Positions 1,376 to 32,606 of a stretch of 64,000 nt of DNA are shown here, in pieces (position 1 is the first letter of the stretch; the number at the start of each line of letters is the position of its first letter). This stretch comes from a virus (lineage: Duplodnaviria > Heunggongvirae > Uroviricota > Caudoviricetes), in the IMG/VR virus record IMGVR_UViG_3300031998_000029, positions 15,666-79,665 of that record, one strand, 5' to 3'. The notes beneath the pieces are model-generated. The model saw only the letters and a list, made by a program, of their open reading frames with translations, was not told the DNA's origin and did no database searches. Position numbers and translations under genes: made by a program.

Positions 1376-1436
1376 CGGAAAAGCACGCCCCCGCAGACGG
1401 GGGATGGGTTAGGTTCGACTCCTGACGGTCTCGACC
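1376..1436 (+). ncRNA. tRNA-like 3' module lacking anticodon arm (D-arm-like, 6 bp variable-type hairpin cccccg/cggggg, T-arm ttagg-ttcgact-cctga, ...ACCA end)
   Basis: ggttcgactcc T-loop consensus and 3' gacca; no complementary 5' acceptor strand or 7-nt anticodon loop found. Confidence 0.3.
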
Positions 1437-1614
1437 AAAACGAAAATTCCTTAAAATTACAAAGATATGAAAAAGCAGCGTAAAACTAATGAAAGTATGG
1501 TCAGCAGAGTAGACCGCCGGTGAGATATGTACAGTCAAATCCGGCCGCTGTTCCCGTGGGTGAAAGTCCCACGGCTCGATTTCAATTAATACATAGGTAT
1601 GAGGTATTTGCAAA

Positions 1615-1827
1615 ATGAAAGCAACTGTTTCGCGTGTTTATGTCTTAATAAGACATCTCCCATTCGTAGGGGGACAGATTGAGGGAATCTTTTTGTCAAA
1701 CGACAGCGCTCTGAAGTGGCTGGAAGAACAAGTACAAAACGGCGAATGGTGCGCGTTTGATGCAAAGTATAATACCGAAATTAAAGAATGGGATGTCAAA
1801 GGAGGAAAATATGTTACGTTACGTTGA
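1615..1827 (+). CDS. hypothetical protein
   Basis: ORF track; first gene after long non-coding region; weak RBS. Confidence 0.4.
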   Translation: MKATVSRVYVLIRHLPFVGGQIEGIFLSNDSALKWLEEQVQNGEWCAFDAKYNTEIKEWDVKGGKYVTLR

Positions 1828-2299
1828 TATTCCAGATGGTAGATACAGCGGGTTGTGGTTCGACTCTGACCCCTGGAGGCTTACCGCAGAAGATCAGTGT
1901 TGGGACGCTGAAACCCTCCGTCAATTAAAAGAAGAGTATAATGTTGTATTTTGTACTGATGGAGACGGGGTCACCCCTATAATGGTTTCAAAAGAATGGG
2001 GAATAGTTCTTGGCTGTGAAGACGATGGTACTATCTATTTCAATCAAAAATACGGGCAGCCCGACATGTGTTTTTCTTTGGTGTGGGTAAAGCACTTCAT
2101 GGCAGATCTTAAGGAGGCATATAAGATGGGCGTTAAGGAACTGTGGGAAGAATTTGGAGATGTCCCCATGGATCCGGAAACGGAGTGCATAGAAAGCGAT
2201 TGGCGCAGCTTTCCAAAAGGCACGCACAGAGAAGATATTTGGCACTGGTTTGAAGAAGAGTTTGGGATCGAAGTACATACTCTGATGTACGGAGAATAA
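1811..2299 (+). CDS. hypothetical protein
   Basis: ORF 1757..2299 trimmed to ATG 1811 preceded by GGAGG at 1801-1805. Confidence 0.6.
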   Translation: MLRYVDIPDGRYSGLWFDSDPWRLTAEDQCWDAETLRQLKEEYNVVFCTDGDGVTPIMVSKEWGIVLGCEDDGTIYFNQKYGQPDMCFSLVWVKHFMADLKEAYKMGVKELWEEFGDVPMDPETECIESDWRSFPKGTHREDIWHWFEEEFGIEVHTLMYGE

Positions 2300-2327
2300 A
2301 ACACAACTGTATAGAGAGGAATTGTAT

Positions 2328-2500
2328 ATGACGGTCTATCTCATTTTTGACACAGTCCCCATCCATCGCGAGGTTGTCGGGGTTTTTTCTACCGAGCAGA
2401 AAGCGAGAGAGTGGCTTGACAGAGCATACGATGATTTTGGATGGACATACGGAGAAGTCAGCTCAGCAATTATCGAACCGTGGGTTGTTGACCTCGAATA
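2328..2500 (+). CDS. hypothetical small protein (57 aa)
   Basis: ATG after agagagga RBS; MTVYLIFDTVPIHREVVGVF...; below ORF-track size cutoff. Confidence 0.45.
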
Positions 2501-2536
2501 ATACTTAGAATAAAACATAACTTTGATGAGAAACTT

Positions 2537-2788
2537 ATGAATTATAAGATTGGAGACAAGATATTTTTTATAGGAATCCGTTGCAATATCAGCAAGCTAA
2601 TGGGAGATGTAGGCGACTGTAGTTGGTTTTGCCCAAAACAAGTTCCAGATTGTGAACGATACGTCTGTGAATGCGAGATTGGCAATCAGGCGGCTGCCGA
2701 CAGCTTTAATAATGACGATGACTCTTGTTATGCTTCACGAGCCGAAGCAGAAAGCGCGTTACGGAAGTTGCAACAGAAACATATTTGA
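2537..2788 (+). CDS. Cys-rich small protein (putative Zn-binding)
   Basis: CSWFCPKQVPDCERYVCECE cysteine cluster. Confidence 0.55.
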   Translation: MNYKIGDKIFFIGIRCNISKLMGDVGDCSWFCPKQVPDCERYVCECEIGNQAAADSFNNDDDSCYASRAEAESALRKLQQKHI

Positions 2789-2825
2789 TAATGCCCTATG
2801 ATTTAATAAGGAGATATGACAATGT

Positions 2826-3710
2826 ATGAGTGAGAATCCTTTTGAAGCAATAGCGAACATTTACAATTACGCCGTTGAAGAAGCGGATAAGTTGGGGTAT
2901 GCGAATACATTCAAGAAATGTGCAGAGCTTTTCTTTAAGGCTGTCAATGAAGAGAGCGCCTTGAGAGACAATCCGGTTCACTTTTCGGATGTCGAATATC
3001 TCGACGGATACTTCATTTTTGGCTCCGGCACGAACTCTGTGGTTCACTTCCATATAGATGAATGCCCGGGCTGGAAATTCGGCATTTGGTGGAATGTTCC
3101 AGAAGAAGGAAAATCATCTGTTTCCGGAGATTTCTTCGCTCAGTTTGAGGAAGCTATAGACAAGTTCAAGCCATCTGCATCCGAGATCAACGGGAAAATC
3201 AACATTGATCCTGATGGAAATTTCTCGGCTTCTGTATGGGGAGTATCAAGAGAAATCCGATTTATCCGAGATGAACCGTACCTTTCATTCTGCCGATCTT
3301 ATTGCTTCTGGGATTACAACACCGAGCATCATACACGAGAAGAAGCAGAGCAGGAATACAGAGAATATAGAGAGCGCAAAGATAATGAGTATAATTACAC
3401 AGCTCTGGTAGACGGTAAAATCCTGATGTTCGTGAGGGAAAAAGTTCTTCCAATATTTAAAAACGCAAGGATTGTAGACAGAGGTGATGGTTGGTCTCCA
3501 AGATATGATGTTGTTGCGCCTTTGAAGGACAATACAGACATTGTGAACAAGCGCGGCTGCTACAATTGGTTTGCTGAGGATGACGAAGAAGGTCAAAAGA
3601 TTATGGATGAATTCAATGTATTAATAAAAGAGGGTGAGGATTACGGAGATAAGTACGGGTTCTATTATTCTGCGCCCATCCACAGCAACATTGGGTTCTA
3701 TGAAGAATAA
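2826..3710 (+). CDS. hypothetical protein
   Basis: 294 aa ORF; RBS aaggagat upstream. Confidence 0.65.
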   Translation: MSENPFEAIANIYNYAVEEADKLGYANTFKKCAELFFKAVNEESALRDNPVHFSDVEYLDGYFIFGSGTNSVVHFHIDECPGWKFGIWWNVPEEGKSSVSGDFFAQFEEAIDKFKPSASEINGKINIDPDGNFSASVWGVSREIRFIRDEPYLSFCRSYCFWDYNTEHHTREEAEQEYREYRERKDNEYNYTALVDGKILMFVREKVLPIFKNARIVDRGDGWSPRYDVVAPLKDNTDIVNKRGCYNWFAEDDEEGQKIMDEFNVLIKEGEDYGDKYGFYYSAPIHSNIGFYEE

Positions 3711-3736
3711 AATCAACACTTGATAAGGAGAAAGCA

Positions 3737-4102
3737 ATGCGAAAATACATTGAAGCAGAAGCGGCGTTAAAAGCGGTCTGCAAAGATTGTGATATACGAC
3801 ATCCGTCTGAAAAAGATGAGTGCCCGTACAAGTTCACTGGTTGTATGGCGTTTTATAACGTATACGATATTCCTATTGCTGACGTGCAGGAAGTAAAGCA
3901 CGGAAAGTGGATTGAAAAGAAACACCTGATGCCGCTCGCTTTCGATATTTTTCCCCTTGATTTTGATAATTATGACGAGAAAATACATACTGAGTGGGTG
4001 TCATATTGGCATTGCTCGTTGTGCGACAATGAACAGAGTCGCAACATAAAGCCATCAGACAATTATTGTCCGCATTGCGGCGCAAAGATGGACTTGAAAT
4101 AA
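3737..4102 (+). CDS. Zn-ribbon protein
   Basis: CKDC...CPYKFTGC and C-terminal CSLC...CPHCGAKM. Confidence 0.6.
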   Translation: MRKYIEAEAALKAVCKDCDIRHPSEKDECPYKFTGCMAFYNVYDIPIADVQEVKHGKWIEKKHLMPLAFDIFPLDFDNYDEKIHTEWVSYWHCSLCDNEQSRNIKPSDNYCPHCGAKMDLK

Positions 4103-4130
4103 AACAATTATTGATATAAGAGGTGTAAAA

Positions 4131-4331
4131 ATGAACATCGTTAAACCTGGAAAACCTCAGAACAAAGGAGAGTTTCATTTTATCTGTGAAAAATGTGGGT
4201 GTGAATGGTATGCCGACAGGGGCGATAAAGGATTGGGAATATCGCCGCCCTGCTGCGAGTTTTATGCATACATGAGATGTCCAAATTGTCACTCAGAAAC
4301 TATAGACGAAAATCATAAAATAAAGCGTTGA
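4131..4331 (+). CDS. Zn-ribbon protein
   Basis: CEKCGC...CPNCHSE; RBS agaggtg. Confidence 0.55.
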   Translation: MNIVKPGKPQNKGEFHFICEKCGCEWYADRGDKGLGISPPCCEFYAYMRCPNCHSETIDENHKIKR

Positions 4332-4345
4332 TAGGAGCGATAAAG

Positions 4346-4576
4346 ATGTGCGGCAGCAACAATGGCAGGCATATTTGTGCCACCTGTTCTCATAGCGACG
4401 GATGCATGGCCGGGTTTTTTGATGACGACTGGTTTCCTGCGAATATGGAGAAAGTTATCGATAATCTCGACAATCATAGATATGATGATAAAAGGATAGC
4501 TATGAAAAAATTCCTTATTCAAGAATACCTGTACGACTATGACCGTCGAACATACATTGAAGTCGATGCGAGGTGA
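4346..4576 (+). CDS. hypothetical Cys/His-containing protein
   Basis: ORF 4328..4576 trimmed to ATG 4346 after aggag. Confidence 0.5.
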   Translation: MCGSNNGRHICATCSHSDGCMAGFFDDDWFPANMEKVIDNLDNHRYDDKRIAMKKFLIQEYLYDYDRRTYIEVDAR

Positions 4577-4582
4577 AAGACT

Positions 4583-5011
4583 GTGTTGTATAAAATAGTT
4601 CCTAAAAAACCTATTGCGTCAATCATCGACGCAGAGTCGCCGGACAGCGCAATAGATGCATTCGCTTGGAGTATGGACGACGACATGAATATTTATTTTG
4701 AAGCTGTTCCCGCAACCGACGCGGAAACAAAGGAGTTTGAAGAATCTAAGCAATCTTTTGCTACTCATCTCCGAATCTGCTCCGTCTGCGGGAGGCCGGT
4801 ATATGCCGGCATGACAAACGCGGATGGAAGTTTTTATGTCCACGAGGAATGCTTTGAGACATACATGAACGAGACTTATGGTGCGTGGTTTGAAGTCGAT
4901 GATGACGGCTGCGGCGGCTATTATATGGGTTGCGAACGTGAAGAACCTATCGGCCCCTATGCCACCGGCATCTTCTATACAGAGTGGGAAGACGAGGAGT
5001 TTGAAGAATAA
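4583..5011 (+). CDS. hypothetical protein with CxxC and acidic C-terminus
   Basis: GTG start after gaggtgaaaga; CSVCGRP...HEECFE. Confidence 0.6.
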   Translation: MLYKIVPKKPIASIIDAESPDSAIDAFAWSMDDDMNIYFEAVPATDAETKEFEESKQSFATHLRICSVCGRPVYAGMTNADGSFYVHEECFETYMNETYGAWFEVDDDGCGGYYMGCEREEPIGPYATGIFYTEWEDEEFEE

Positions 5012-5094
5012 TGTATATAAGAAAAACGCGAGACCGCTGAAAGGATGAAATTTGAGAAGAATAAAATCAACTTTTCATAACGGATGGTGTAGAT

Positions 5095-5481
5095 ATGGAG
5101 AATAAGATTGTAATACGACTTCCAAACGGTTATCACCTTGTTGCGGAACAGAATTCAGATCCCAACTATCTCAACGAAATATTTATCGGGATTTTGGACG
5201 AATATGGAGTGTGGCATCAAGACCTCGCCGTCGTAAGATGTGCATACGAAATAGACGATGAATTCCGCGTTCATTGGAAAGACGAGGAATTTGACGTTCT
5301 GGTGTATTCCGACGAGAACAACGAAGATTTCACACATGACTTCACAGTCGGACTGTATCATAAAGAAGATGGCTTAAATATTTGTGGAGAACATGGTTGT
5401 GACGGTTGCTTGTATCAGCATCACAACGATATTGATATATGCAAACAGGAAGCCGCAAGAAAGAATAAAATGACTTTTTGA
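5095..5481 (+). CDS. hypothetical protein
   Basis: ORF track, 128 aa. Confidence 0.6.
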
Positions 5482-5498
5482 TAAGGAGAATATTTATA

Positions 5499-5762
5499 GT
5501 GGCGAAATGTAAAGCATGCGGAAAAGAAATGCTGTCTGCCGTTGGTTGCACGTTCAATTTAATACAGATGGCAGACGGGAAAACAATTAAACGTCATAAG
5601 GTCGGCGACGAGGGGTGGTATGACAAAGGGCAGAGATGCGGTGACTGCGGTGCTTTATATGGTCATTATCATCACCCCGGATGCGACGTGGAGCGTTGCC
5701 CCGTTTGTGGAGGTCAGCTTATTAGTTGCTTTTGTGACATAACGAGCTATGTTAGGAAGTAA
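5499..5762 (+). CDS. Zn-finger protein (multiple CxxC)
   Basis: GTG 5499 after aaggagaa; AKCKACGK...CGDCG...CPVCGG. Confidence 0.55.
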
Positions 5763-5791
5763 AACCAATATTCGATAAGAGGTTTAGAAGG

Positions 5792-6103
5792 ATGATAAAA
5801 GAATTCATAAAGAATAAGTCCAAAATCATCGTCATTTGGGCGAAATACGATGATGCCCATACATACTTTACGGGCGATATTCCGACGAGCGCGGACGCGA
5901 TTGCTTCTATTCACCGTTTCGAGTCGGTCGAATCATTTTCAATGTATTGGCGTGCAATACGCGATTGCCCGGAAGATATGTGGTATTGGGTTCTTGTTGA
6001 AGAGAACGGGTGTCAAACCTGTATCTGTTCAGGAGCTTGCGATAGCGGTGACGAGGATGTCTTTGTTGAGTGTTTCGGCGCGGGATATTTTGAAGAAACA
6101 TAA
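5792..6103 (+). CDS. hypothetical protein
   Basis: ORF track; RBS agaagg. Confidence 0.55.
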   Translation: MIKEFIKNKSKIIVIWAKYDDAHTYFTGDIPTSADAIASIHRFESVESFSMYWRAIRDCPEDMWYWVLVEENGCQTCICSGACDSGDEDVFVECFGAGYFEET

Positions 6104-6130
6104 AACCTTGATTTGATAAAAGGAGAACTG

Positions 6131-6679
6131 ATGAGAAAGTTTATTTGTATTTTTCTAATGACTATGATGATTCTGTCTGTTATGTCTGGGTGTGACTTTG
6201 ACTCTGAGGAATTTGGGTCGGCATCGGATACGATCAGGACAAAGGAAGCAGCAAATATACTGCAATACAACCAGCCAACTCCGACCGATATTTCGTATTC
6301 GCTTGAACGATATAACCTAATACGCAGAACATACTGGGTAAACGGACAGAGGGAGAAAGCAAACTCTCTTCCTTGCGAAATAGAAAAGCCGCTCGGATAT
6401 ATAGTATTATTTTCCGGCAATGTTGTTGTCGGAAATTTTATTGTAGACGGCAAGGTTTCAAGCTTAAACAGTTTCCTTACCCCAGATAGTGAGTATTACT
6501 CCAGCAGTGCTATAAATAAGTGGCTTGCCGATGTAGATGGGTCGTATGGAACAAACGACAGTGGGATTTTCTTCTTTACTCCGGACGGCAAGTATATCGA
6601 ATGGAGCGGTGACTATCTTTATTCTGATATTCCGTTTGTGGTTGAATCGCCGGTTCTCAATATTGGAGATGGTAATTGA
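6131..6679 (+). CDS. putative lipoprotein (signal peptide with lipobox LSVMSGC)
   Basis: ATG 6131 after aaaggagaa; MRKFICIFLMTMMILSVMSGC. Confidence 0.6.
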   Translation: MRKFICIFLMTMMILSVMSGCDFDSEEFGSASDTIRTKEAANILQYNQPTPTDISYSLERYNLIRRTYWVNGQREKANSLPCEIEKPLGYIVLFSGNVVVGNFIVDGKVSSLNSFLTPDSEYYSSSAINKWLADVDGSYGTNDSGIFFFTPDGKYIEWSGDYLYSDIPFVVESPVLNIGDGN

Positions 6680-6680
6680 T

Positions 6681-14171: not shown

Positions 14172-15275
14172 ATGGAAAGGAATGTCACAGTGCGAAAATT
14201 AGCAAGTATAAAGACGATCTCGGACATACTTCCGATTGAGGGCAAAGACAGGATCGTCCTGGCGCTCGTAGACGGATGGAGCGTCATTGTTAAGAAGGAC
14301 GAGTTTCAGGTCGGTGACAAGTGCGTTTATGTAGAAATAGATTCCGTAATGCCGGAGAAAGAAGAGTTCGAGTTTCTCAGGAAGGTAAACTTCAGAATTA
14401 AAACCATGAAGATGTCCGGGGTTTTATCGCAGGGTATCTGCTTCCCGTTAAGCATTCTTCCGAAGAAAGAGGACGGAGAATATGAGACAGAGGAAGATGT
14501 CACCGAAATACTCGGTATAAAGCAATATGAAAAGACGATGGATACAGAACCGCAGACAGCTCCGTGCAAGAAGGTTTCAAACAAGTATCCGCACTGGTTA
14601 ATGAGAATGGCATGGTTCAGAAAGCTGGTTCTTCCGAAGAAAAAGGCACGCGGCTTTCCGTCTTTCGTGTCCAAGACCGATGAAAGCAGGATCCAGAACA
14701 TGCCGTTCATCTTAAAAGATAAAAGAAAGTGGATTGCAACAGAAAAGATAGACGGACAAAGCGGTACTTTCTGCCTGGTCAGACATAAGTCCCGTCTGCC
14801 TTTTATAAAGGATAAGTTTGAGTACATAGTATGCTCCCGTAATTACAGAACCGACGACAAAAGCACGTCTTACTGGAAGGTATCTGACAGATATAACATC
14901 AGGGACGTTCTGGAAAAGCTGATCGGCGATAACGACTGGGTTGTGATTCAGGGCGAATGCATCGCTCCCAACGTCCAGGGCAACAAATACAAGGTCAAAG
15001 AGGCAGATCTGTATGTGTTCAATCTTATCTACCCGGACGGCAGAGTGGGATCACTTACCGCCAAGTATGCCTGTGAAGCTTTCGGTCTGAAATTTGTTCC
15101 GATAATTGAAACGGGATATATACTGCCGGATACCGTTAATGAAGTCCTTGAATATGCTCACGGACAGAGCATGATCGGAGACACCATAAGAGAGGGAATC
15201 GTGTTCAGAAGCATGGACGGCAGGCTGAGTTTCAAGGCGGTCGATCCGATTTTCCTTATGAAGTATGACGAATAA
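14172..15275 (+). CDS. ATP-dependent RNA ligase-like protein (Rnl5/DraRnl-like: N-terminal OB/tRNA-binding-like domain + nucleotidyltransferase domain)
   Basis: KxDG lysine-adenylylation motif in WIATEKIDGQSGTF; N-terminus VRKLASIKTISDILPIEGKDRIVLALVDGWSVIVKKDEFQVGDKCVYVEIDSVMP resembles OB/tRNA-binding domains. Confidence 0.6.
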   Translation: MERNVTVRKLASIKTISDILPIEGKDRIVLALVDGWSVIVKKDEFQVGDKCVYVEIDSVMPEKEEFEFLRKVNFRIKTMKMSGVLSQGICFPLSILPKKEDGEYETEEDVTEILGIKQYEKTMDTEPQTAPCKKVSNKYPHWLMRMAWFRKLVLPKKKARGFPSFVSKTDESRIQNMPFILKDKRKWIATEKIDGQSGTFCLVRHKSRLPFIKDKFEYIVCSRNYRTDDKSTSYWKVSDRYNIRDVLEKLIGDNDWVVIQGECIAPNVQGNKYKVKEADLYVFNLIYPDGRVGSLTAKYACEAFGLKFVPIIETGYILPDTVNEVLEYAHGQSMIGDTIREGIVFRSMDGRLSFKAVDPIFLMKYDE

Positions 15276-16373: not shown

Positions 16374-16397
16374 ATGTGAATAAAATTCGGGTTTTAT

Positions 16398-16466
16398 AAA
16401 ACGGTGGCGGAATAGGCAGACGCTTACGCCGTTAGGTTATGCGTGGTGCAAATACACGCCCGTTAA
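16398..16466 (+). ncRNA. tRNA-like element E1 (class-II-type D-arm TGGCGGAATAGGCAGACGC + T-arm-like gcgtg-gtgcaaata-cacgc + short acceptor-like stem; no anticodon arm)
   Basis: D-arm matches tRNA positions 8-26; paralog of element at 32492; lies in the 5' leader of the phosphoesterase gene. Confidence 0.35.
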
Positions 16467-16480
16467 AAAGGAGAGATAAT

Positions 16481-17236
16481 ATGATTTTCGTAACAGGCGA
16501 TTGTCACGCAGACTTCAGACGATTCTCCAAAGAGAATTTTCCTGAACAAAAAGAAATGACCAGAGACGACACGGTGATCGTGTGCGGGGATTTCGGTCTG
16601 TGGCATGATGCGCCCGGCGAGCAATGGTGGTTCAGATGGATAGAGGAAAAGCCGTTTACGCTGGTTTTTGCAGACGGCAACCATGAGAACTTCGACAGGC
16701 TGTACTCAAATGAATTCCCGGTGGTTGATTTTCACGGAGGAAAAGCTCACAAGATTCGAGAAAATCTATATCATCTGATGAGAGGATATATATTTGACTT
16801 CGAAGGCAAATCATTCTTTGTCTTCGGAGGAGCTCAGAGCCACGATATACAGGACGGAATCTTAGACAGAAGTGATTTTGAATCAGACGAAAGTTTCTTA
16901 AATACCGTTAAATCCTGGAATGAAAAAGGGAAATATTTCCGCATCAATCATATTTCGTGGTGGAAGCAGGAACTTCCCACACAGGACGAAATGGACTTCG
17001 GAATCAGCACTCTTAAGCAGCACGGCAATAAAGTTGACTTTGTAATATCCCACTGCTGTCCGCAGGAAATAGCGTCGATGAACGGGTATCACACCCCGGA
17101 CATACTGACTTCTTACTTCGATGGTATTGCAAGGCAGATCAAATTCGATAAGTGGTTTTTTGGGCACTATCATAATAACAACACAACATATTCAAAGTTC
17201 GTAATGCTGTACGAAAACATCGAAAGAATCTTATAA
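16481..17236 (+). CDS. calcineurin-like metallophosphoesterase
   Basis: ATG 16481 after aaaaggagag; motifs GDCHAD, GDFGLW, GNHE. Confidence 0.8.
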   Translation: MIFVTGDCHADFRRFSKENFPEQKEMTRDDTVIVCGDFGLWHDAPGEQWWFRWIEEKPFTLVFADGNHENFDRLYSNEFPVVDFHGGKAHKIRENLYHLMRGYIFDFEGKSFFVFGGAQSHDIQDGILDRSDFESDESFLNTVKSWNEKGKYFRINHISWWKQELPTQDEMDFGISTLKQHGNKVDFVISHCCPQEIASMNGYHTPDILTSYFDGIARQIKFDKWFFGHYHNNNTTYSKFVMLYENIERIL

Positions 17237-19033: not shown

Positions 19034-19139
19034 AAATCAAATGGAGTTTTTGTGAAACTTATAGACAAGATTTGTTAAGCGCGGTTTGGGAGTGCATAAC
19101 CACATACATGGAAATGTAAGTCAAAAAGGGGGTCAAAGG

Positions 19140-19598
19140 ATGTTACATATAATCGAGGGTGATATTTTACTTTCAGATGCAGCGGCAATTTGTCATCAGG
19201 TTAATTGTCAAAACGTGATGGGTTCTGGCGTTGCTAAAGAACTCTATATAAAATGGCCGGAGGTCAAACAAAGGTATCATGAGTTCTGCAAAGGCAAAAA
19301 TCCGTATGATTTACTTGGCAAAGTTCAAGTCGTTGAACTTGACGAGTTCCCGGCCGGCAACAAGGTTGTTATAAACATCTTCGGGCAGCTTAATTTTGGA
19401 CGTCAGAAAGTTTGTTATACCGACTATAGCGCCCTTGATGAAGCATTCCAGAACCTTAACCGCCTCTGTGCCACTAAAAAAATAGCACTTCCCTACGGAT
19501 TCGGATGCGGTCTTGCCGGTGGAAATTGGAAGACAGTTGAGCGAATAATGCTAAAGCGCCTTTGGCTGCCCGAAGTATACATATATATGAAAGAGTAG
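19140..19598 (+). CDS. Macro domain protein (ADP-ribose binding / ADP-ribosyl hydrolase-like)
   Basis: ATG 19140 after aaagggggtcaaagg; MLHIIEGDILLSDAAAICHQVNCQNVMGSGVAKEL matches the macro-domain N-terminal signature. Confidence 0.7.
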   Translation: MLHIIEGDILLSDAAAICHQVNCQNVMGSGVAKELYIKWPEVKQRYHEFCKGKNPYDLLGKVQVVELDEFPAGNKVVINIFGQLNFGRQKVCYTDYSALDEAFQNLNRLCATKKIALPYGFGCGLAGGNWKTVERIMLKRLWLPEVYIYMKE

Positions 19599-23641: not shown

Positions 23642-24439
23642 TTATTCGCCACAGACGAAGTAGTCCGGGGTAGATATTTTCTTCTCTAATATTACCCTGC
23701 CTAGACACCTGACAGATATATTACTATCTGCTCCGATGTATACATTCGTTTCTTTAAGCAAAGGGTTAGACGAAATCAAGGAAAGGTTTCTTGACGAGTC
23801 GATATAGTATTGCTTGCAATACATTGCTCCGTCGACATCAAATATTCCAACGTCCCCGATATTCATCGGGGCATTTTTCTCGACATACACGATATCTCCG
23901 TCGGATATATACGGAAGCATGCTGTCGCCCTGAATTCTTACGGCAAAATTCGCAGTTTCCGGGATACCGTTGTCGAAGGGGATCATTTCGAACTCATCGT
24001 TTTCCAAAGGAAAAGACGCGCCGGCAGCAGACGGTGTAGAATAGAGTGGTATGTATCTGCGAGTATCAGACTTTTTCCCTTTCGTCGAAGTCTTAAAGTC
24101 ACCCCTCTTTTTTTCAAGAGAGCAGACGGAGCTCACAATTTGTTTGCCCAACCTGTCCAGCAGTCTGTAGTCAAATAATAGTCTCAGTTCGTCTGTTGTT
24201 AATGACAGTTCGTCAAATCCATTGTTCTCTATGCCAAGAATATCGTCAACAGATACACCAAATACATGAGACAATGAGACCAGAGCGTCCAAAGACGGTT
24301 TCTTGGCGGCGGATTCCCAGTTTCTTATCGTAACAACAGACACACCGACCTTTCGACTGAGCTCATGCTGTGTCATTGAGGCGCGTTCTCTTAACATCCT
24401 GATTCTGTTACTCAACGTCATTTTGTTATTATCTCCCAA
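23642..24439 (-). CDS. CI/LexA-like phage repressor (XRE-family HTH + S24 peptidase domain)
   Basis: HTH QHELSRKVGVSVVTIRNWES; C-terminal GDSMLPYISDGDIVYVE with Ser and downstream YCKQYY Lys dyad. Confidence 0.85.
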   Translation of the reverse strand: MGDNNKMTLSNRIRMLRERASMTQHELSRKVGVSVVTIRNWESAAKKPSLDALVSLSHVFGVSVDDILGIENNGFDELSLTTDELRLLFDYRLLDRLGKQIVSSVCSLEKKRGDFKTSTKGKKSDTRRYIPLYSTPSAAGASFPLENDEFEMIPFDNGIPETANFAVRIQGDSMLPYISDGDIVYVEKNAPMNIGDVGIFDVDGAMYCKQYYIDSSRNLSLISSNPLLKETNVYIGADSNISVRCLGRVILEKKISTPDYFVCGE

Positions 24440-25136: not shown

Positions 25137-25568
25137 TTGGACAGCAATTGCAGACACCCGAAAATAGGAGAAATCTATCTTATGCGCTTCGGCGGAAGCG
25201 GCAGCGAGCAGAGCGGATTGAGACCCGGGCTTGTTTTCCAGAACAATACGGGAAATCTCCACAGTCCGAACATAATTGCGCTGCCGCTGACAAGCGCCAT
25301 CAAAAAGACAGAGCAGCCTACCCATGTACTCATACCGTCCGACGAAACCGGGCTTCTTAAAGACAGCATTGTTCTCTGTGAAAACCCGGAAAGAATGTCT
25401 AAGGATAAGATCGGCGCTTACATAACGACGATCCCGGATAAGTATATGGGCGATGTCGCCGCAGCCAGTATAATTGCGTCTTCTGCAATTTCTTTCTTAG
25501 ATCAGGAGACACTTATAGACTTATGGCGCAAAGCGGTTTCTCTCAACGCAGTTCGAAAAACTGCGTGA
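25137..25568 (+). CDS. MazF/PemK-family toxin-like protein (CcdB/MazF fold)
   Basis: TTG start after ggaagga and a TGtTATAAT extended -10; KIGEIYLMRFGGSGSEQSGLRPGLVFQNN...IIALPLTSAIKK...VLIP matches the MazF/PemK N-terminal pattern. Confidence 0.55.
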   Translation: MDSNCRHPKIGEIYLMRFGGSGSEQSGLRPGLVFQNNTGNLHSPNIIALPLTSAIKKTEQPTHVLIPSDETGLLKDSIVLCENPERMSKDKIGAYITTIPDKYMGDVAAASIIASSAISFLDQETLIDLWRKAVSLNAVRKTA

Positions 25569-25591
25569 TACATATAAAAAGGAGGGCTGTT

Positions 25592-26539
25592 ATGTATAAT
25601 GCTGTTTTAAAAGAGGAGTTTATAAAAACCCAAACAAGTGTCTCCGTAAGAACCGCATATAAACATCTGTTTGAAGCCATAGAGAAATTTGAAAGAGAGT
25701 GGGGCGCAGATATCTGCACAAGAACGCCGGAGGAACTCAGACCGGTAATGGATGATATATTGGGTGTGACCAGATACGGCAACAGAATGAGAACCGGTCT
25801 CTTAAAAAAGTACGCTTTATGGTGTATGGAAAACAATGTCCCCGGGGCTTGCAAGGGCGTTTTTGAAGTCGATCTGTCAAACGTAAGTAAGATGCGGACA
25901 CAGACCGTTAAAAACCCCGCACACCTGCAAGCTTATCTTAACGTCCTGTTTGGCCCGGAAAAAGACGAAGGAACAGACAACGCATTAAGATGCTTTTTCT
26001 GGCTTGCCTACGGAGGATTGCTTGAAGAAGATGCCATCAAGGTAACAGCAAAAGATGTAGACCTTGTGAATATGGTGTTTAGATTCAACGGTGAAGAGTA
26101 TCCCATATACAGAGAGGCGGTACCGTGTTTTAGGAACTGTGCGACGTTGACTCAGTTTGCTTTAAAATACCGTAACGGAACCGTATATAAAGACAGATGC
26201 CTCGGAGACAGTTTGTTAAGGCGTACCTCCTTTCCAGATAAGGATATAGTAGGAATAAGATCTCAGGTTTCAAAAGCAGTCACTACAGCATATAAGTCCG
26301 GCAAAACCGATATATGTCTGAGCTACTTTAAGGCGTGGCTGTCCGGAGTGTTTTATCGGACATACATTGCCGAGAGTATGGGCATAGCTCCGGACTTTAC
26401 AAACCCGGTCGCAAAACTGATGCAGAACATATCATACTCTCTGGATAACACAAGGGCGTCCATTAGCTCGTACCGAAATTATAAGGCAAAATGGTACTTA
26501 AACGATTATGAACAATGGAAAACAACGCTGATAGTATAA
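25592..26539 (+). CDS. hypothetical protein; degenerate tyrosine-recombinase-like fold (box I Arg replaced)
   Basis: NALRCFFWLAYGGLLEEDAIKVTAKDVDL resembles integrase box I but TG-R is GG-L; no HxxR box II. Confidence 0.3.
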   Translation: MYNAVLKEEFIKTQTSVSVRTAYKHLFEAIEKFEREWGADICTRTPEELRPVMDDILGVTRYGNRMRTGLLKKYALWCMENNVPGACKGVFEVDLSNVSKMRTQTVKNPAHLQAYLNVLFGPEKDEGTDNALRCFFWLAYGGLLEEDAIKVTAKDVDLVNMVFRFNGEEYPIYREAVPCFRNCATLTQFALKYRNGTVYKDRCLGDSLLRRTSFPDKDIVGIRSQVSKAVTTAYKSGKTDICLSYFKAWLSGVFYRTYIAESMGIAPDFTNPVAKLMQNISYSLDNTRASISSYRNYKAKWYLNDYEQWKTTLIV

Positions 26540-26624: not shown

Positions 26625-26699
26625 CGGGATGTCGCCAAGCGGTAAGGCACGGGATTTTGGCTCCCGCATTCGTCGGTTCGAACCCGACCATCCCAGCCA
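26625..26699 (+). tRNA. tRNA-Gln (anticodon TTG) with C1:A72 mismatch
   Basis: Close to Firmicutes tRNA-Gln: D gcc-aagcggtaa-ggc, AC cggga-ttttggc-tcccg, T gtcgg-ttcgaac-ccgac, acceptor cgggatg/catccca, G73, CCA encoded; preceded by tataat. Confidence 0.75.
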
Positions 26700-26728: not shown

Positions 26729-27304
26729 ATGATCAGATGGATGGATAACAAAGAAAGATTTCTGTCTCTTTGCGCAGACATAAAGCGAGAGGGGGTAGAA
26801 GAGCTTCTCTCCTGGCTCGGGAAGAGCGACTTTTTCATTTGTCCTGCAAGCACAAGATTTCACGGAGCATATCAAGGCGGACTCCTGGAACACTCTCTGA
26901 ACGTATATGATGAGCTGAGAAGGCTTCTTACAGTATACCCGGAGATCAATGTTCCCGAGGAGTCCATAATAATCTGCGCATTGTTTCATGACTTATGCAA
27001 GGTAAATATGTATGGGTCTGAAAAGCGCAACAGAAAGAACGAGAGAGGACAATGGGAAACATACGATGCTTATACGATCCAGGAAAAATTTTGTTTCGGC
27101 GGACACGGAAGTAAATCGGTTTTTATCATTCAGCAGTTTATGAAACTGACGCCGGAAGAAGCAGTGGCGATTAACTGCCACATGTCCGCATTCGACGAAA
27201 ATAAGTATGTCGGCAACGCCTATGAGCAGTTTCCTTTTGCATGGCTGCTCTCGGCAGCGGATCAATCAGCAACCTATATAAAGGAATCCAAAGCTAATAC
27301 ATAA
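26729..27304 (+). CDS. HD-domain phosphohydrolase
   Basis: H...HD motif: FHGAYQGGLLEHSLNV ... ALFHDLCK. Confidence 0.6.
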   Translation: MIRWMDNKERFLSLCADIKREGVEELLSWLGKSDFFICPASTRFHGAYQGGLLEHSLNVYDELRRLLTVYPEINVPEESIIICALFHDLCKVNMYGSEKRNRKNERGQWETYDAYTIQEKFCFGGHGSKSVFIIQQFMKLTPEEAVAINCHMSAFDENKYVGNAYEQFPFAWLLSAADQSATYIKESKANT

Positions 27305-27319
27305 CTAACGGAGGAGTAA

Positions 27320-28021: not shown

Positions 28022-28044
28022 ATCGGAAGAAAGGGGAATTTACT

Positions 28045-28422
28045 TTGGGATTCAGAAATAACAGTTATGCCGTTGTTTGGTCAACCGAAACGGTTTCGGA
28101 CACTTTGACCAAGGGAAGAATAAGCATAAGCAGAAAGAATAAGCAGACCGGAGAATACGAACAGGACTTCGGAGGATTCGTTAGTTTTATAGGAAGCGCC
28201 TGTGCGAAGAAAGCATCGCAGTTAAAAGAAAAGGATCGTATAAAACTTGGAGACGTCGATGTTTCCAATAAGTATGACAAGGAAAGAAACACGACATACA
28301 CAAACTTTAAGATATTCAGTTTTGAACTCGCCGATGAGCCGGCCGGATCACGCTCAGCGAACACAGAGCCGCAGCCGTCAGTAGACTCCGGTGAGATTGA
28401 CGATGAAGACCTTCCGTTCTAA
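28045..28422 (+). CDS. ssb: single-stranded DNA-binding protein
   Basis: TTG start after aaagggga; OB-fold-sized, C-terminal acidic tail DDEDLPF. Confidence 0.8.
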   Translation: MGFRNNSYAVVWSTETVSDTLTKGRISISRKNKQTGEYEQDFGGFVSFIGSACAKKASQLKEKDRIKLGDVDVSNKYDKERNTTYTNFKIFSFELADEPAGSRSANTEPQPSVDSGEIDDEDLPF

Positions 28423-28434
28423 TAGGACGAACAG

Positions 28435-29211
28435 ATGAGCGAGGCGATCTATCGACCACTTATAGACGATATGACGTGGAGCTACAGCAGAGTAGAGTGC
28501 TTCAATGATTGTCCTTATCGATGGTTCTTGACATATATCTGCAAGGAAAGCGGTGTTCCGCAGTTTTACAGCTCTTACGGTACTTTCATTCATAAACTAA
28601 TCGAACAGTATTATCGCGGAGAGATCACAAAGGAAGAGATGCATCTGAGATTTCTGATTGATTTCAGCAAAGAGGTACAAGGAGTCCGACCGAAAGAAAG
28701 CACCGTAAAAAAATACATAGAGCAGGGAAATGAATACCTGAAAGGGTTTGAGCCGTTCCCGTTTGATATGATAGACGTCGAATCCAGAGTGGAATTTGAC
28801 ATAGACGGCATTCCTTTTGTGGGAATCATCGATTATATCGGCGAAAAAGACGGAGATATATATATTGTCGACAACAAATCCAGAGATCTTAGGCCAAGAA
28901 GTGGTCGAAAAACACCCACACAGAACGATAAAGATCTGGATGATACTCTTCGACAACTGTATATTTATTCAACTGCTGTAAAACAGAAATACGGAAAGTT
29001 TCCGAGAGCACTATGTTTGAACTGTTTCAGAACCGGAGTGTTTATAAAAGAGCAATTTGATGAGCAGAAATACAACGAAGCAATCGAGTGGGCGAAGACG
29101 AGCATTGAAAGAATAAAGAACGCAGACGAGTTCTATCCGAATGTAGAATTCTTCGGTTGTCAATATATATGCAATCACTACAGCGACTGCTGTTACTGGC
29201 AGGGGAGGTGA
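28435..29211 (+). CDS. PD-(D/E)XK exonuclease, Cas4/RecB-like with C-terminal Cys cluster
   Basis: GIIDYIGE...IYIVDNKS (D...D-x-K) and C-terminal CLNC...CQYICNHYSDCC; adjacent to erf/ssb. Confidence 0.65.
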   Translation: MSEAIYRPLIDDMTWSYSRVECFNDCPYRWFLTYICKESGVPQFYSSYGTFIHKLIEQYYRGEITKEEMHLRFLIDFSKEVQGVRPKESTVKKYIEQGNEYLKGFEPFPFDMIDVESRVEFDIDGIPFVGIIDYIGEKDGDIYIVDNKSRDLRPRSGRKTPTQNDKDLDDTLRQLYIYSTAVKQKYGKFPRALCLNCFRTGVFIKEQFDEQKYNEAIEWAKTSIERIKNADEFYPNVEFFGCQYICNHYSDCCYWQGR

Positions 29212-29223
29212 TAAGAGTTTACT

Positions 29224-30555
29224 ATGCCGAGAGGTGATTTTAGCAGTTTATCAAGCGAATCCGGGATTATAGCATCGCTCATACATAACCCCGAGCTCAT
29301 ATATCATTCAGAAAACCTGCTGCCGACACACTTCAGTAACTACGATAACAGATGCGTGTACGCTGCAATAGGGGAACTTGTAAAGAAGGGAATAACTTCC
29401 GTTGATCCCTACAACATTATAGAAGTTTTGAACTCGTCCACGGCTACAAAGAAGTATGCTGAGAACCTGACGGTAGAAAAACTCTTCGAGCTTATAGAGG
29501 TAAGCGATCTTCTCGCCAGAAACTCGGTAGAAGAATACAAACTTCTTGCAAATAACGTTCTTGATGCCGCGCTTCGACGAGACATGTATCAGGGTCTGCA
29601 GAAATGCATGAATATATGCATGGATGAAAACCAGCAGGATATACAGCAACAGGTTTATCAGGTAATCGACGAAACAATCTCGTCGTATTCGTCTGCGGAA
29701 GACGTACCGGCTTACTCCGACGTCGTTGACGGGCTCTGGGACGAGATAAAAGCGAGACAGGAACAAGGATACTCCGGCATCCCGTTCAAATTCCCGGCGC
29801 TTAACGATTATGTGACCGGAGAACGTGGAGAGCTTATCATTTTCGGAGCTCAACAGAAGGTGGGCAAGAGCATAATGCTTTTAAATGTGGCGGTGGATCT
29901 GCTGAGGCAGGGTTACTCGGTTTTATATATAGATTCCGAGCTCTCTACAAGACTTTTTACCGCAAGGCTTCTTGCTCATCTCTCCGGGGTGTCATACCGT
30001 GATCTCACATCCGGACATTACAGTAAAGAGGACGAAGAGAAGATCCTGGCATCAAAAGAATGGGTAAAAACAAAGAAGCTTACACACGTTTACATGCCGT
30101 TTTTTGATCAGCAGAGTATTTTTTCTCTTACAAAGAAGGTCGACCACAAACAGGGCATCGACGTTATCATAATCGATTATTTTAAGTCTACCGGCAACGA
30201 AATGGACGCTTATCAGACATACGCTGCAATGGGCAGATGCGTTGATCTGGTTAAAAATGAGATAGCCGGAGACATGAATGTGGTTGCAATAGGCGCAGCT
30301 CAGGCAACCATAAATAATAAGCTTGCAGACTCCGCAAAAATAGCCAGAAATGCATCCACGATAATAATGCTTGTGGATAAGACCCCGGAAGAAATAGAAG
30401 CTGACGGCGTGGAGTGCGGAAATAAGAAGATGATAGTCACAGTAAACAGAAACGGTGCTCAAATGGCGCCCGGAGAATACATAGACCTGATGTTTGACGG
30501 CGATCATATTTCTTATGAGCAAGCAAAGCAGCATATACCGCAGTCTCCGTTCTGA
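29224..30555 (+). CDS. replicative DNA helicase (DnaB-like)
   Basis: Walker A GAQQKVGKS, DnaB-type RecA-like domain IIIDYFKS...; 443 aa. Confidence 0.8.
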   Translation: MPRGDFSSLSSESGIIASLIHNPELIYHSENLLPTHFSNYDNRCVYAAIGELVKKGITSVDPYNIIEVLNSSTATKKYAENLTVEKLFELIEVSDLLARNSVEEYKLLANNVLDAALRRDMYQGLQKCMNICMDENQQDIQQQVYQVIDETISSYSSAEDVPAYSDVVDGLWDEIKARQEQGYSGIPFKFPALNDYVTGERGELIIFGAQQKVGKSIMLLNVAVDLLRQGYSVLYIDSELSTRLFTARLLAHLSGVSYRDLTSGHYSKEDEEKILASKEWVKTKKLTHVYMPFFDQQSIFSLTKKVDHKQGIDVIIIDYFKSTGNEMDAYQTYAAMGRCVDLVKNEIAGDMNVVAIGAAQATINNKLADSAKIARNASTIIMLVDKTPEEIEADGVECGNKKMIVTVNRNGAQMAPGEYIDLMFDGDHISYEQAKQHIPQSPF

Positions 30556-30569
30556 TATGGGGTGAAAAC

Positions 30570-31559
30570 ATGCGAATAGAAGATCTCTTGAACTCCATAG
30601 ACGCAGTCGAGTTTCTTTCTCAGTATACGGATTTAAAAGAAGAGAACGGAGAATACTGGGGAATCAGTCCACTGTCAAATCCGCCCGAAAAAACACCTTC
30701 TTTTTCTGTTAGAAAAGAAACGGGGAAGTTCTATTGCTTTTCAACCGGCATCGGAGGCTCGCTAATAACGTTTTTAAAATATTATCACGGCATTTCGGCG
30801 TCGGAAGCAATAGAAATGCTCAAAAAGTACGCCGGTGTAGACGGAGAAGTCTTTGTACCAAGAGAAAAAATGGCCGCAACTATAGTTTGCAAGCAGTTTT
30901 CAAGGCCGACACATCTGCAAAAGACGTCGAAAGCCGTGATTTTGCCCGACAATTACATGGAGCGGTATGAAAAAACGGATGAAAAGCTCTCCGTCTGGGA
31001 AAATGAGGGTATTTCAAGAGCTTCTTTGGATAGATTTCAGGTATACTACGATAGTTTCTCGGACAGGCTTGTATATCCCATAAGAAATATGGACGGAAAG
31101 ATAGTAAATGTGGGCGGGAGAACGCTTGATCCAATGTGGAAAGAGAAAAAACAGCGTAAATACTGTTATTTTCACTCTTGGGGCACTATTGAGACTATCT
31201 ATGGGGTTCCTGAAAACCTTGAATATATCAAACAGAAGAAAGAAGTCATTCTTTTTGAGGGATGCAAGAGTGTTTTGCTTGCCGACACATGGGGCATACG
31301 CAATACAGGAGCGATTTTAACCAGTCATCTTTCGCCATCTCAGTTGAAAATACTTGCCAAACTCGGCTGCAGAGTGGTTTTTGCGCTCGACAAGGATGTT
31401 CGTGTCCGCGACGACCATAATATCGCAAAACTAAAGCAATTTGTTAATGTTGAGTATCTATGGGACAGCGGAGATCTGCTCGACGACAAAGACGCGCCTG
31501 TAGATAAAGGCATAGAGGTTTTTCAAAATCTATACGAACATCGTCTTAAATATAGATAA
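30570..31559 (+). CDS. DNA primase (DnaG-like, degenerate Zn finger + TOPRIM)
   Basis: KTPSFSVRKETGKFYCFSTGIGGSLITF zinc-finger-region homologue; TOPRIM ILFEGCKSVLLAD...VFALDKD. Confidence 0.7.
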   Translation: MRIEDLLNSIDAVEFLSQYTDLKEENGEYWGISPLSNPPEKTPSFSVRKETGKFYCFSTGIGGSLITFLKYYHGISASEAIEMLKKYAGVDGEVFVPREKMAATIVCKQFSRPTHLQKTSKAVILPDNYMERYEKTDEKLSVWENEGISRASLDRFQVYYDSFSDRLVYPIRNMDGKIVNVGGRTLDPMWKEKKQRKYCYFHSWGTIETIYGVPENLEYIKQKKEVILFEGCKSVLLADTWGIRNTGAILTSHLSPSQLKILAKLGCRVVFALDKDVRVRDDHNIAKLKQFVNVEYLWDSGDLLDDKDAPVDKGIEVFQNLYEHRLKYR

Positions 31560-31583
31560 ATTCAATGAATAAAAGGAGTTTTC

Positions 31584-32435
31584 ATGTCTAACAAAAATCT
31601 AATCAAAACAACCATAGCTATTACTTGTATAGTGCTTGCCATCATATTTTTCGCAAGCTGCTCTGTCGTTGTCGGTGCAGGACACACCGGAGTAGTTTCG
31701 ACATTTGGCCGCATCAGTTCCGATGTGCTTCAGGAGGGTTTCCATTTGAAAGCTCCCTGGCAGAGAGTTCAGAAGATGGACAACCGTATCGTCAAGCTTG
31801 AAGTCGCAACAGAAGCTTTTAGTTCAGACCTTCAGACAGTTTCGGTTAATCTCGCTGTTAATTATAGAGTGGACACCACCATGTCCTACTATATTATCAA
31901 GAATGTCGGTAAGCACTTCGAGGATGTTTTGATTACGCCGACTGTAAACGAAGTTCTCAAGTCTATTATTGCACACTACACGGCAGAGCAGTCGATAACC
32001 AATCGTGTCACTATCTCAGAATCCATTATTGAAGGATTAAACGGCAAGCTCAATCAAAACGGTATCTATGTATCCGATATAAACATCATTGACTTTGATT
32101 TCAGTGATACATATATTCAGGCAATCGAAGCCAAGCAGGTTGCAGAACAGCAGAAGCTGAAGGCGTTGATTGAGCAGGAGCAGCTCACCATGGAAAAGAG
32201 CGCTCAGGCAGAACGAGATATTATCGCAGCGGAAGCGGCGCTTGAAGTTTCTAAAATTGAGGCAGAAGCAGTTGAGTTCGCGGGCAGAAAAGAAGCCGCC
32301 GCGAACAAAGCGATTGCCGAAAGTATCACGCCGGAGCTTGTAGAGTATTACAAAATCCAGAGATGGGATGGCGCGTTACCTCATATCACGGGTATGGACA
32401 CCATTATCACCATGTCTGAAACTGATAAGCAGTAG
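31584..32435 (+). CDS. SPFH/band-7 (prohibitin/HflC-like) membrane protein
   Basis: N-terminal TM, SPFH core and C-terminal coiled coil AEQQKLKALIEQEQ... Confidence 0.7.
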   Translation: MSNKNLIKTTIAITCIVLAIIFFASCSVVVGAGHTGVVSTFGRISSDVLQEGFHLKAPWQRVQKMDNRIVKLEVATEAFSSDLQTVSVNLAVNYRVDTTMSYYIIKNVGKHFEDVLITPTVNEVLKSIIAHYTAEQSITNRVTISESIIEGLNGKLNQNGIYVSDINIIDFDFSDTYIQAIEAKQVAEQQKLKALIEQEQLTMEKSAQAERDIIAAEAALEVSKIEAEAVEFAGRKEAAANKAIAESITPELVEYYKIQRWDGALPHITGMDTIITMSETDKQ

Positions 32436-32491
32436 GAGGTGGTAAAAATGTACAGCGGCAACGGTAATCCGGCATACCCGCTTGAGTAATA

Positions 32492-32606
32492 AATGCGGTG
32501 GTGGAATAGGTAGACGCTTAGTAAATGCATAAAAAGGCGTAAAGGAGCCGGAAATCTGGCGAGTGCAAGCAAAAGCATATGTGTGGTGCAAATCCACATC
32601 CGCATT
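32492..32606 (+). ncRNA. tRNA-like element E2 (perfect 7 bp acceptor aatgcgg/ccgcatt, class-II D-arm TGGTGGAATAGGTAGACGC, T-arm tgtgg-tgcaaat-ccaca; aberrant ~65 nt core, no canonical anticodon arm)
   Basis: Paralog of E1 at 16398; possible tRNA pseudogene, interrupted tRNA or tRNA-mimic RNA. Confidence 0.4.

Follow-up and report, generated by a model that had tools for sequence, protein, structure and literature searches.

What use could a phage make of RNA modules that keep the outline of a transfer RNA (tRNA) without its anticodon arm? The question is raised by a stretch of 64,000 nucleotides (nt) from a tailed phage (Caudoviricetes; positions 15,666 to 79,665 of IMG/VR virus record IMGVR_UViG_3300031998_000029), which was analysed as a whole and is here called the window. 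The original prediction had placed three such modules in it, E1, E2 and a third that we call B, and had taken them to be of one kind; our analysis finds two of one kind and one of another. Comparison of related loci establishes that E1 and E2 belong to a family of phage elements, and establishes the structure and strand of that family, its origin in tRNA-Leu, its inability to decode and its nature as a free-standing module. As to function, on balance we lean towards the view that E1 and E2 are non-decoding mimics of tRNA-Leu from phages of Bacillota, excised by tRNA-processing enzymes and carrying the arm as a lineage-specific payload.

Two copies of one element in the window

E1 and E2 lie where they had been predicted and are laid out as follows, P1 being the acceptor-like stem that closes each element.

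16398..16466, plus strand: E1, whole element, a short, partly degenerate copy of the family
16398-16404, plus strand: E1, 5′ strand of P1
16405-16406, plus strand: E1, equivalents of U8-G9
16407-16423, plus strand: E1, D arm
16424-16440, plus strand: E1, linker of 17 nt
16441-16459, plus strand: E1, T stem-loop, with the loop UGCAAAU at 16447-16453
16460-16466, plus strand: E1, 3′ strand of P1
32492..32606, plus strand: E2, whole element, a full-length family member
32492-32498, plus strand: E2, 5′ strand of P1
32499-32500, plus strand: E2, UG
32501-32517, plus strand: E2, D arm, with the stem GUG/CGC (one G.U)
32518-32580, plus strand: E2, variable region of 63 nt
32581-32599, plus strand: E2, T stem-loop, a 6-bp hairpin with the loop UGCAAAU at 32587-32593
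32600-32606, plus strand: E2, 3′ strand of P1

The motifs that the two elements were said to share each occur exactly twice in the window, the D-arm motif TGGYGGAATAGGYAGACGC at 16405-16423 and 32499-32517 and the T-arm motif GTGGTGCAAATMCAC at 16443-16457 and 32583-32597, and a double match to either was seen in none of 100 dinucleotide-preserving shuffles. Both elements read UG-GYGG-AAUAGGYAGAC-GC and, before the T arm, AU, followed by a 6-bp T stem and a UGCAAAU loop; the exceptions are a U to C change in the D loop and a G.A in E1, and the G.U in the D stem of E2. Both retain the acceptor-like stem, a D arm that matches tRNA-Leu and includes G18/G19, and the bases C56 and A58. The closing stem of E2, AATGCGG/CCGCATT, is as perfect as had been claimed, all seven pairs forming between 32492-32498 and 32600-32606, and the ‘aberrant core’ put at about 65 nt measures 63 nt; the folding z-score of E2 is -2.96. 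E1 is less regular. Its closing stem has five standard pairs out of seven and then two A.A mismatches, the loop-closing pair of its T stem is G.A, and its D loop is AGGCAG where AGGUAG is found elsewhere. The two T stems differ from one another by a compensatory change from C-G to U-A.

A covariance model, R1, was built from an alignment (A1) of 115 distinct IMG/VR family members with the window left out, and was run unfiltered over the window. It scored E2 at 75.0 bits (E=2.2e-20, span 32490-32608) and E1 at 45.6 bits (E=1.6e-11, span 16396-16468); the best real tRNAs of the window reached 13.5-13.9 bits. Family members score 65-91 bits and secondary, divergent copies 41-59 bits. By this measure E2 is a typical, mid-range member of the family, whereas E1 ranks low, a consequence of its short interior and of three defects.

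A megablast search with 20 kb of the window found no match among GenBank phages, and hence no close deposited relative. Among known RNA families, the DUF2815 RNA (RF03084) gave a weak match to E1 (16.6 bits, E=1, against a gathering score of 41.2; span 16413-16483), which covers GG(C/U)AGAC and the A-rich Shine-Dalgarno (SD) region that precedes a phage gene. The alignment comprises unstructured flanks only and typical members of the family are unmatched; the likeness could be due to chance or to a distant relationship between motifs.

A tRNA-Leu derivative in phages of Bacillota

The family was delimited by scanning IMG/VR with an exact pattern in which the D-arm motif is joined to the T-loop motif, and for which about one chance match is expected. 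At least 148 loci were found: at least 120 with a gap of 46-76 nt between the motifs, five with shorter gaps, and 23 further short-interior loci when AGGYAG was allowed in the D loop, none of them with the AGGCAG of E1. The pattern is also matched by 95 GTDB species genomes, nearly all of them Bacillota, with carriers in Bacillus, Paenibacillus, Lactobacillaceae, Enterococcus, Leuconostoc, Weissella, Lachnospiraceae and Oscillospiraceae. BLAST searches placed the element in GenBank phages of Bacillus, Listeria, Enterococcus and Lactobacillaceae, always at an unannotated site, and R1 confirmed the copies in LP-101, a phi3T hybrid and phiSHEF16 at 65-77 bits. About 30 member loci were run against Rfam 15 and none was matched by a family at or above that family's gathering score, and a literature search, which was not exhaustive and covered tRNA-like phage RNAs, ROOL/GOLLD/drum RNAs, anti-defence RNAs and rli62/mcrA, found no description of the family. 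Judged by these scans, the family is widespread in phages and prophages, almost all of Bacillota, and apparently unnamed.

Its architecture retains the upper half and the elbow of tRNA-Leu. A 7-bp, freely covarying P1 is followed by a near-invariant tRNA-Leu D arm (UG-GCGGAAUAGGUAGACGC); then, with no anticodon arm, comes a hypervariable linker or hairpin of 8-72 nt at the position of the variable arm, then AU, then a T arm with a 6-bp stem and the loop UGCAAAU, in which U55 has changed to G. Because the scan pattern required the loop motifs only, the stems provide an independent test of this structure. Counted over the 16 pairs of P1, the D stem and the T stem in alignment A1, 97.6% of cells are paired, against 72.5% in shuffles, and none of 500 shuffles reaches the observed value; sliding the partner strand by 1-3 columns leaves 35-45% of cells paired. 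Cells changed on both sides number 477, against 129 in shuffles. All seven pairs of P1 covary, each with all four Watson-Crick types, as do four of the six pairs of the T stem. The D stem is invariant in A1 as GCG/CGC, and appears as AUG/CAU in a divergent copy (L254), which adds covariation there. Tests of register give a T stem of six pairs, not five, with the sixth paired in 97% of members, and P1 pairing of 86-97% that collapses in other registers. The acceptor/T stack is therefore 13 bp long, compared with 12 in a canonical tRNA. G.U pairs outnumber A.C mismatches by 52 to 17 on the named strand, so that the structure is to be read from the strand shown, as RNA.

Conservation extends beyond the pattern itself. 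The UG after P1 is kept in 97-100% of members, GCGG in 95-97%, the CC after the loop in 99-100%, and the bases A, U and G before the T stem in 91%, 100% and 92%; in our tRNA numbering we take the conserved bases to be those of the tRNA core, namely U8, A14/A15, G18/G19, U48, U54, C56 and A58. By this evidence the conserved part of the element is the acceptor/T stack together with the D arm, and not the variable arm. Short interiors with intact stems occur (8 nt in locus L240, 22-36 nt in others), and constrained folds give the interior one to three hairpins, and in 60 of 114 members exactly two nt (the AU) separate the end of the last helix from the T stem, which is where a class-II tRNA has its variable arm. 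These comparative data strongly confirm that E1 and E2 are homologous tRNA-like RNAs, each built from a D arm of class-II (tRNA-Leu) type, a hairpin resembling a T arm and an acceptor-like stem that closes the element, and devoid of an anticodon arm.

The ancestor is tRNA-Leu. In locus L249 a family member is preceded, at a distance of about 110 nt, by a genuine phage tRNA-Leu(UAG), the 5′ half of which, GUGGCGGAAUUGGCAGACGC, is of the same type as that of the member; the tRNA has a 5-bp T stem, the loop UUCAAAU and an anticodon arm, whereas the member has a 6-bp stem, UGCAAAU and no anticodon arm. R1 gives true tRNA-Leu genes 32-40 bits, and this one 40 bits. Bacterial and phage tRNA-Leu, a class-II tRNA, has the 7-bp acceptor stem, U8 and 3-bp D stem of the family, as well as equivalents of its A15/U48 and a hairpin at the variable-arm position; in Bacillota and their phages its D loop is nearly identical to the family's GGAAUAGGUAGAC, and the T loop is one base apart. 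The family differs from it in having no anticodon arm, a sixth T-stem pair (hence the 13-bp stack), G55, an arm of hypervariable length, no conserved discriminator base and no encoded CCA, and in being missed by tRNA finders. Sequence comparison thus identifies the family as a derivative of tRNA-Leu in which three derived characters, loss of the anticodon arm, the six-pair T stem and G55, are fixed family-wide.

As the anticodon arm is gone, decoding is impossible, and these RNAs can be regarded as unable to decode on structural grounds. Neither E1 nor E2 has the 5-bp stem with a 7-nt anticodon loop that the original prediction also failed to see: ARAGORN called no tRNA on either, by default or with introns, and none on the 115 members, by default or with introns of up to 100 nt. 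The tRNA (RF00005), transfer-messenger RNA (tmRNA) and YrlA (RF02553) models of Rfam gave no match on E1 or E2 at E≤10, nor did RF00005 at its gathering score, and the interiors of family members have no conserved 7-nt loop or U33.

Genomic context and possible roles

Neighbouring genes are heterogeneous, and the element is therefore not tied to any one of them: Pfam searches on 92 downstream and 103 upstream open reading frames (ORFs) revealed no dominant family, and BLAST clustering recovered HNH, terminase and late-regulator neighbours in a subset only. In temperate siphophages a late regulator (DUF722 and DUF1492 families) stands on one side of the element and HNH, terS or terL on the other; in Listeria phage LP-101 the order is regulator, rli62, element, mcrA RNA motif, HNH (L126, 2312-2737). 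In the Enterococcus myophage phiSHEF16 it forms part of a tRNA cluster and starts at the last bases of the phage tmRNA, without a spacer (L128, 2645-3125); the tmRNA (130 bits) and the family member are both unannotated in the GenBank record. Other copies stand beside ROOL RNA (L033, 667-1386) and drum RNA (L031, 1-335), and that of the phi3T hybrid is near a DUF3800-VIII RNA (L127, 4358-4423). A tRNA is found within 300 nt in 23 of 148 loci, on the same strand in all 23, with spacings down to 3-24 nt. Large phage contigs carry tandem arrays of three to five copies: five in L260 (1087-2800, minus strand), three in L254 (185-698) and four in L082 (252-2653). Four of the five copies in L260 share the acceptor stem TCTCGG/CCGAGA and differ in their arms, and some array copies have the variant T loops UGAAAAU and UUCAACU.

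Within the window, E1 and E2 both sit in short plus-strand intergenic gaps, with no promoter-like or terminator-like site beside either. E1 lies between a MucR-like gene and a metallophosphoesterase gene, with an RNA ligase gene 1.1 kb upstream; the SD sequence AAGGAG follows 3 nt downstream of it, and the phosphoesterase gene begins with the ATG at 16481. E2 is flanked by a phrog_200 gene and, downstream, by an uncharacterised ORF with a probable start about 20-35 nt after the element. As called, that ORF (32563-32979) has a GTG start inside the variable arm of E2, preceded at 15 nt by AAAGGAG, and its frame continues through the T arm. In the L132 homologue the initial Met aligns with ATT 32641, which has GGAG 8 nt before it, and the real start is, from this alignment, probably the non-canonical ATT at 32641, after E2. 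On the other side of E2 there is a mini-ORF:

32449..32490, plus strand: 13-codon mini-ORF, MYSGNGNPAYPLE and a stop, with the strong SD sequence AGGAGG; the stop ends 1 nt before P1 of E2

A ribosome terminating at this mini-ORF would overlap P1 of E2.

It had been suggested that absence of the elements from related phages would speak against them. Indeed, none of the compared loci that encode a phosphoesterase homologue (49-62% identity) or a homologue of the gene before E2 (72-74%) has the element within 3 kb, yet the element is present in hundreds of other phages. The comparison is uninformative because the element is a mobile, free-standing module; and, as it is not syntenic, these relatives are unusable for covariation specific to E1 or E2.

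Some further features of the window may be recorded here. RNA-repair-like genes occur near E1, namely an Rnl-type RNA ligase (14172-15275), the metallophosphoesterase (16481-17236), a phosphatase (phrog_335; 19086-19598) and an HD phosphohydrolase (26729-27304). Markers of a temperate life cycle comprise a CI/LexA-like repressor (23642-24439, minus strand), an integrase-like gene (25523-26539) followed directly by tRNA-Gln(UUG) (26625-26699), and a large serine integrase (45492-46913). We are probably dealing with a large temperate phage whose host is a member of the Bacillota from the gut.

Our data are consistent with a model in which the element would be transcribed within plus-strand operons or tRNA arrays and handled there as a tRNA. 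In established tRNA processing, the acceptor/T stack and the elbow serve as recognition features for RNase P, RNase Z and the CCA-adding enzyme. On the 5′ flank of P1 the cut would be made by host RNase P, and on the 3′ flank RNase Z or exonucleases would act. The polycistronic transcript would be cut at this point, and excision would release a stable, tRNA-shaped small RNA and leave a defined 5′ end on the downstream mRNA. That the element is excised like a tRNA is the most likely course, since it keeps the features on which RNase P, RNase Z and the CCA-adding enzyme depend and shows tRNA-like spacing in tRNA arrays. A 13-bp stack distinguishes tRNA-Sec from elongator tRNAs, and here the stack together with G55 would plausibly keep the RNA from EF-Tu and from the ribosome. 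The conserved chassis would then display the lineage-specific arm as a functional payload, which might be a decoy for some factor of the host or the phage or a site that binds it, a role suggested by the hypervariability of the arm and by arrays whose copies share the chassis.

Several observations weigh against this model. Transcription, processing, CCA addition and stability are points that we infer from resemblance and context only, and the payload idea has just the two supports named. The 3′ end is not obviously tRNA-like, because the nucleotide after P1 is A in 56% of members only and CCA is not encoded. Searches of the interiors for motifs gave only a weak excess of UAAG (z=2.7) and, in the variable arm, no enrichment of SD-like or GGA (CsrA-type) motifs; an antisense search of E1 and E2 against the whole window found complements no longer than 10-12 nt, the level of shuffled sequence, so the arm of E2 has no antisense target within the window. 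The invariance of the D and T loops is unexplained by general tRNA-likeness, and hints at a specific partner. E1 could be decaying or non-functional: IMG/VR and JGI metagenome scans found no near relative of it, and the JGI scan for the AGGCAG form returned two matches only, both due to chance. With almost no arm and a weakened stem, E1 is either a minimal version retained for processing only or a decaying copy. Lastly, many copies, E1 and E2 included, lie 10-40 nt before a start codon, which fits a role in cis equally well.

Such a role is the main rival explanation: the element would act only as a 5′ leader on its own transcript, by generating or shielding the 5′ terminus of the mRNA that follows or by controlling initiation at the adjacent ribosome-binding site, and would do nothing as a free RNA. 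In its favour, only 3 nt separate E1 from the SD sequence of the phosphoesterase gene, and E2 ends some 20-35 nt before the probable next start; about one-fifth of members have an ORF start, with SD sequence, 11-40 nt downstream; and the copies of temperate siphophages stand in the leader of the late operon, that of LP-101 between the rli62 and mcrA motifs. We nevertheless think it unlikely that a leader function is all there is, as the downstream genes are mutually unrelated, an intrinsic terminator rather than a gene follows the copies in L001, L004 and L005, other copies are embedded in tRNA arrays, abut a tmRNA or form the tandem arrays of three to five, and a plain hairpin would be enough for 5′ protection, making the invariant elbow superfluous. 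Roles in cis and in trans are not mutually exclusive.

The remaining rivals deny either the function of the element or its nature as a non-decoding RNA. A 5′ half nearly identical to that of genuine tRNA-Leu could mark the family as functionless, decaying tRNA-Leu pseudogenes, as the original prediction allowed, and E1, with its weakened acceptor stem, its T-stem G.A, its D-loop substitution and its lack of relatives in IMG/VR and JGI metagenomes, could on its own account be such a relic. For the family this is very improbable, since pairing stands at 97.6% with abundant compensatory changes, E2 scores in the middle of the family range, and hundreds of unrelated phages show the same G55, sixth T-stem pair and missing anticodon arm; independent decay would not reach one common architecture. 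Barely credible, too, is a site acting at the level of DNA, whether for attachment, associated with cos or pac, or bound by a protein. Many copies are found near packaging genes and near the ends of deposited linear genomes, but their location in the genome varies, they always share the orientation of neighbouring tRNAs (23/23), both stems covary and G.U exceeds A.C threefold on the named strand; the proposed attachment-site relic is further contradicted by the presence of both halves of the element. We give almost no credence to the idea that the elements are working, decoding tRNAs whose variable region hides an intron or an anticodon arm of non-canonical form. ARAGORN can be forced, at thresholds of 70-80% with introns allowed, to call E2 a tRNA-Ala with a 25-nt intron and E1 a tRNA-Val, but against the absence of any default or intron call on E1, E2 or the 115 members stand only 13 calls among those members at the 90% threshold, with seven inconsistent identities; an anticodon arm and a variable arm would not both fit into the natural interiors of 8, 17 and 22-28 nt, no 7-nt loop or U33 is conserved, and the 13-bp stack and G55 are unlike elongator tRNAs.

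The role of tRNA mimic or decoy already proposed from the sequence is compatible with the data, and the preferred reading, that of an excised, non-decoding tRNA-Leu mimic, can be taken further in a possible, if rather doubtful, direction. The tRNA-Leu chassis, disabled for translation by G55, the additional T-stem pair and the missing anticodon arm, would serve as a natural ‘tRNA scaffold’ on which a repertoire of RNA hairpins is expressed and stabilised, the arms would be lineage-specific effectors, for example decoys or sponges for tRNA-directed defence enzymes of the host or for other factors that bind RNA, and excision by RNase P and RNase Z would also punctuate the mRNA. If that were true, the family would represent a new and widespread class of trans-acting phage RNAs that often adjoin ROOL, drum, tmRNA and tRNA genes. 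The invariant elbow, the hypervariable arm, the fixed changes that should bar the RNA from translation and the tandem arrays together point to a specific partner, and to a role in phage–host conflict or in the RNA processing of late genes. As the family is present in the model phages LP-101 of Listeria, phi3T of Bacillus subtilis and phiSHEF16 of Enterococcus, genetically workable hosts are at hand. A covariance model of the family would moreover fill a blind spot in annotation, the seemingly ‘empty’ gaps beside terminase genes and inside tRNA clusters.

Element B and known non-decoding tRNA-like RNAs

The third predicted module is of a different kind.

1362..1433, plus strand: B, a marginal 72-nt tRNA-like cloverleaf, just after the second of two non-coding repeats associated with a reverse transcriptase (RT)

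The D arm, the T arm (GGTTCGACTCC) and the ACCA end that had been described for B are all present. Its supposed lack of an anticodon arm and of a 5′ acceptor strand was not upheld, as ARAGORN draws a full cloverleaf, a tRNA-Leu(cag) with a 6-bp acceptor stem (two G.U, one mismatch), a canonical T arm and an anticodon arm with a 4-bp stem topped by G.G, a 7-nt loop CGCAGAC and G at position 33; what had been taken for a 6-bp variable-type hairpin is the anticodon arm of this fold. ARAGORN finds five tRNAs in the window, four canonical ones and B, whereas Rfam finds the four canonical ones only, with no tRNA match on B even at E≤10. Model R1 gave no match on B either, and no relatives of B were found in IMG/VR. 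B is therefore a gene of its own, a singleton that codes for a marginal tRNA or tRNA-like RNA and shares nothing specific with E1 and E2.

We also considered B as a part of the RT-associated RNA, and rejected this: the homologous loci L236 and L238, each with an RT and two units, have no tRNA-like end, so B is separate from that RNA. Positions 3-1360 of the window hold the C-terminal part of the RT (YADD motif) followed by two tandem structured non-coding units. Each unit opens with a hairpin, GCTCTYCGCTGWCAGCRAGAGTAACG (506-531 and 1070-1095), with compensatory changes between the copies, and the second also contains two long, near-perfect hairpins, at 1118-1186 (CAGGCAGGCAGG...CCUGCCCGCCUG) and at 1200-1249 (a 21-nt inverted repeat). 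The same layout recurs in metagenomic relatives (L236, 735-1290; L238, 4640-5190). All 118 of 118 RT homologues are short gene calls of 85-272 amino acids, and the RT gene may be split or mis-called. In L238 a Metallophos gene and RtcB lie near the RT, with no E1-like element.

Non-decoding tRNA-like RNAs are known from several systems, and E1 and E2 can be placed among them. The tRNA-like domain of tmRNA shares with the family its inability to decode, ends that form an acceptor stem stacked on a T arm, and a large insertion in place of the anticodon arm. The family is unlike tmRNA in that its third P1 pair varies freely, with no G3.U70 alanine identity, in that it has no tag reading frame and no pseudoknots, and in its full D stem; ARAGORN in tmRNA mode reported nothing on E1 or E2.

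YrlA, a non-coding RNA that is also present in phages, likewise includes a tRNA-like module equipped with D and T arms. In YrlA the RNA ends in the Ro-binding stem and the acceptor-like arm is closed; in the family the topology is reversed, the RNA ending in the acceptor stem, and the YrlA-like role that had been proposed for E1 and E2 is not supported, in view of this and of the failure of RF02553 to match them. The sole weak YrlA match, 17.8 bits against a gathering score of 69, bridges two other tRNA-like elements in L005. A scan of window proteins, which covered only part of the ORFs, turned up no Ro/TROVE protein.

Beside family members in L005 (5703-5779 and 5899-5975) and L260 (about 1700-1790 and about 2700-2790) there are tRNA-like genes of other kinds, whose T loops are canonical but whose anticodon arms are aberrant or absent. 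Phage RNA clusters may harbour non-decoding tRNA-likes more generally.

The mascRNA/MALAT1 signals and the stable RNAs ‘species 1 and 2’ of phage T4, which are encoded within its tRNA cluster, are tRNA-shaped and non-decoding, and are excised by RNase P and RNase Z from longer transcripts. By their descriptions these RNAs are set apart from the family, which is distinguished by tRNA-Leu ancestry, G55, the extra T-stem pair, the hypervariable arm and the tandem arrays. Alongside tmRNA, YrlA, mascRNA and viral tRNA-like structures, the family represents a seemingly undescribed and very common addition to the non-decoding tRNA mimics.

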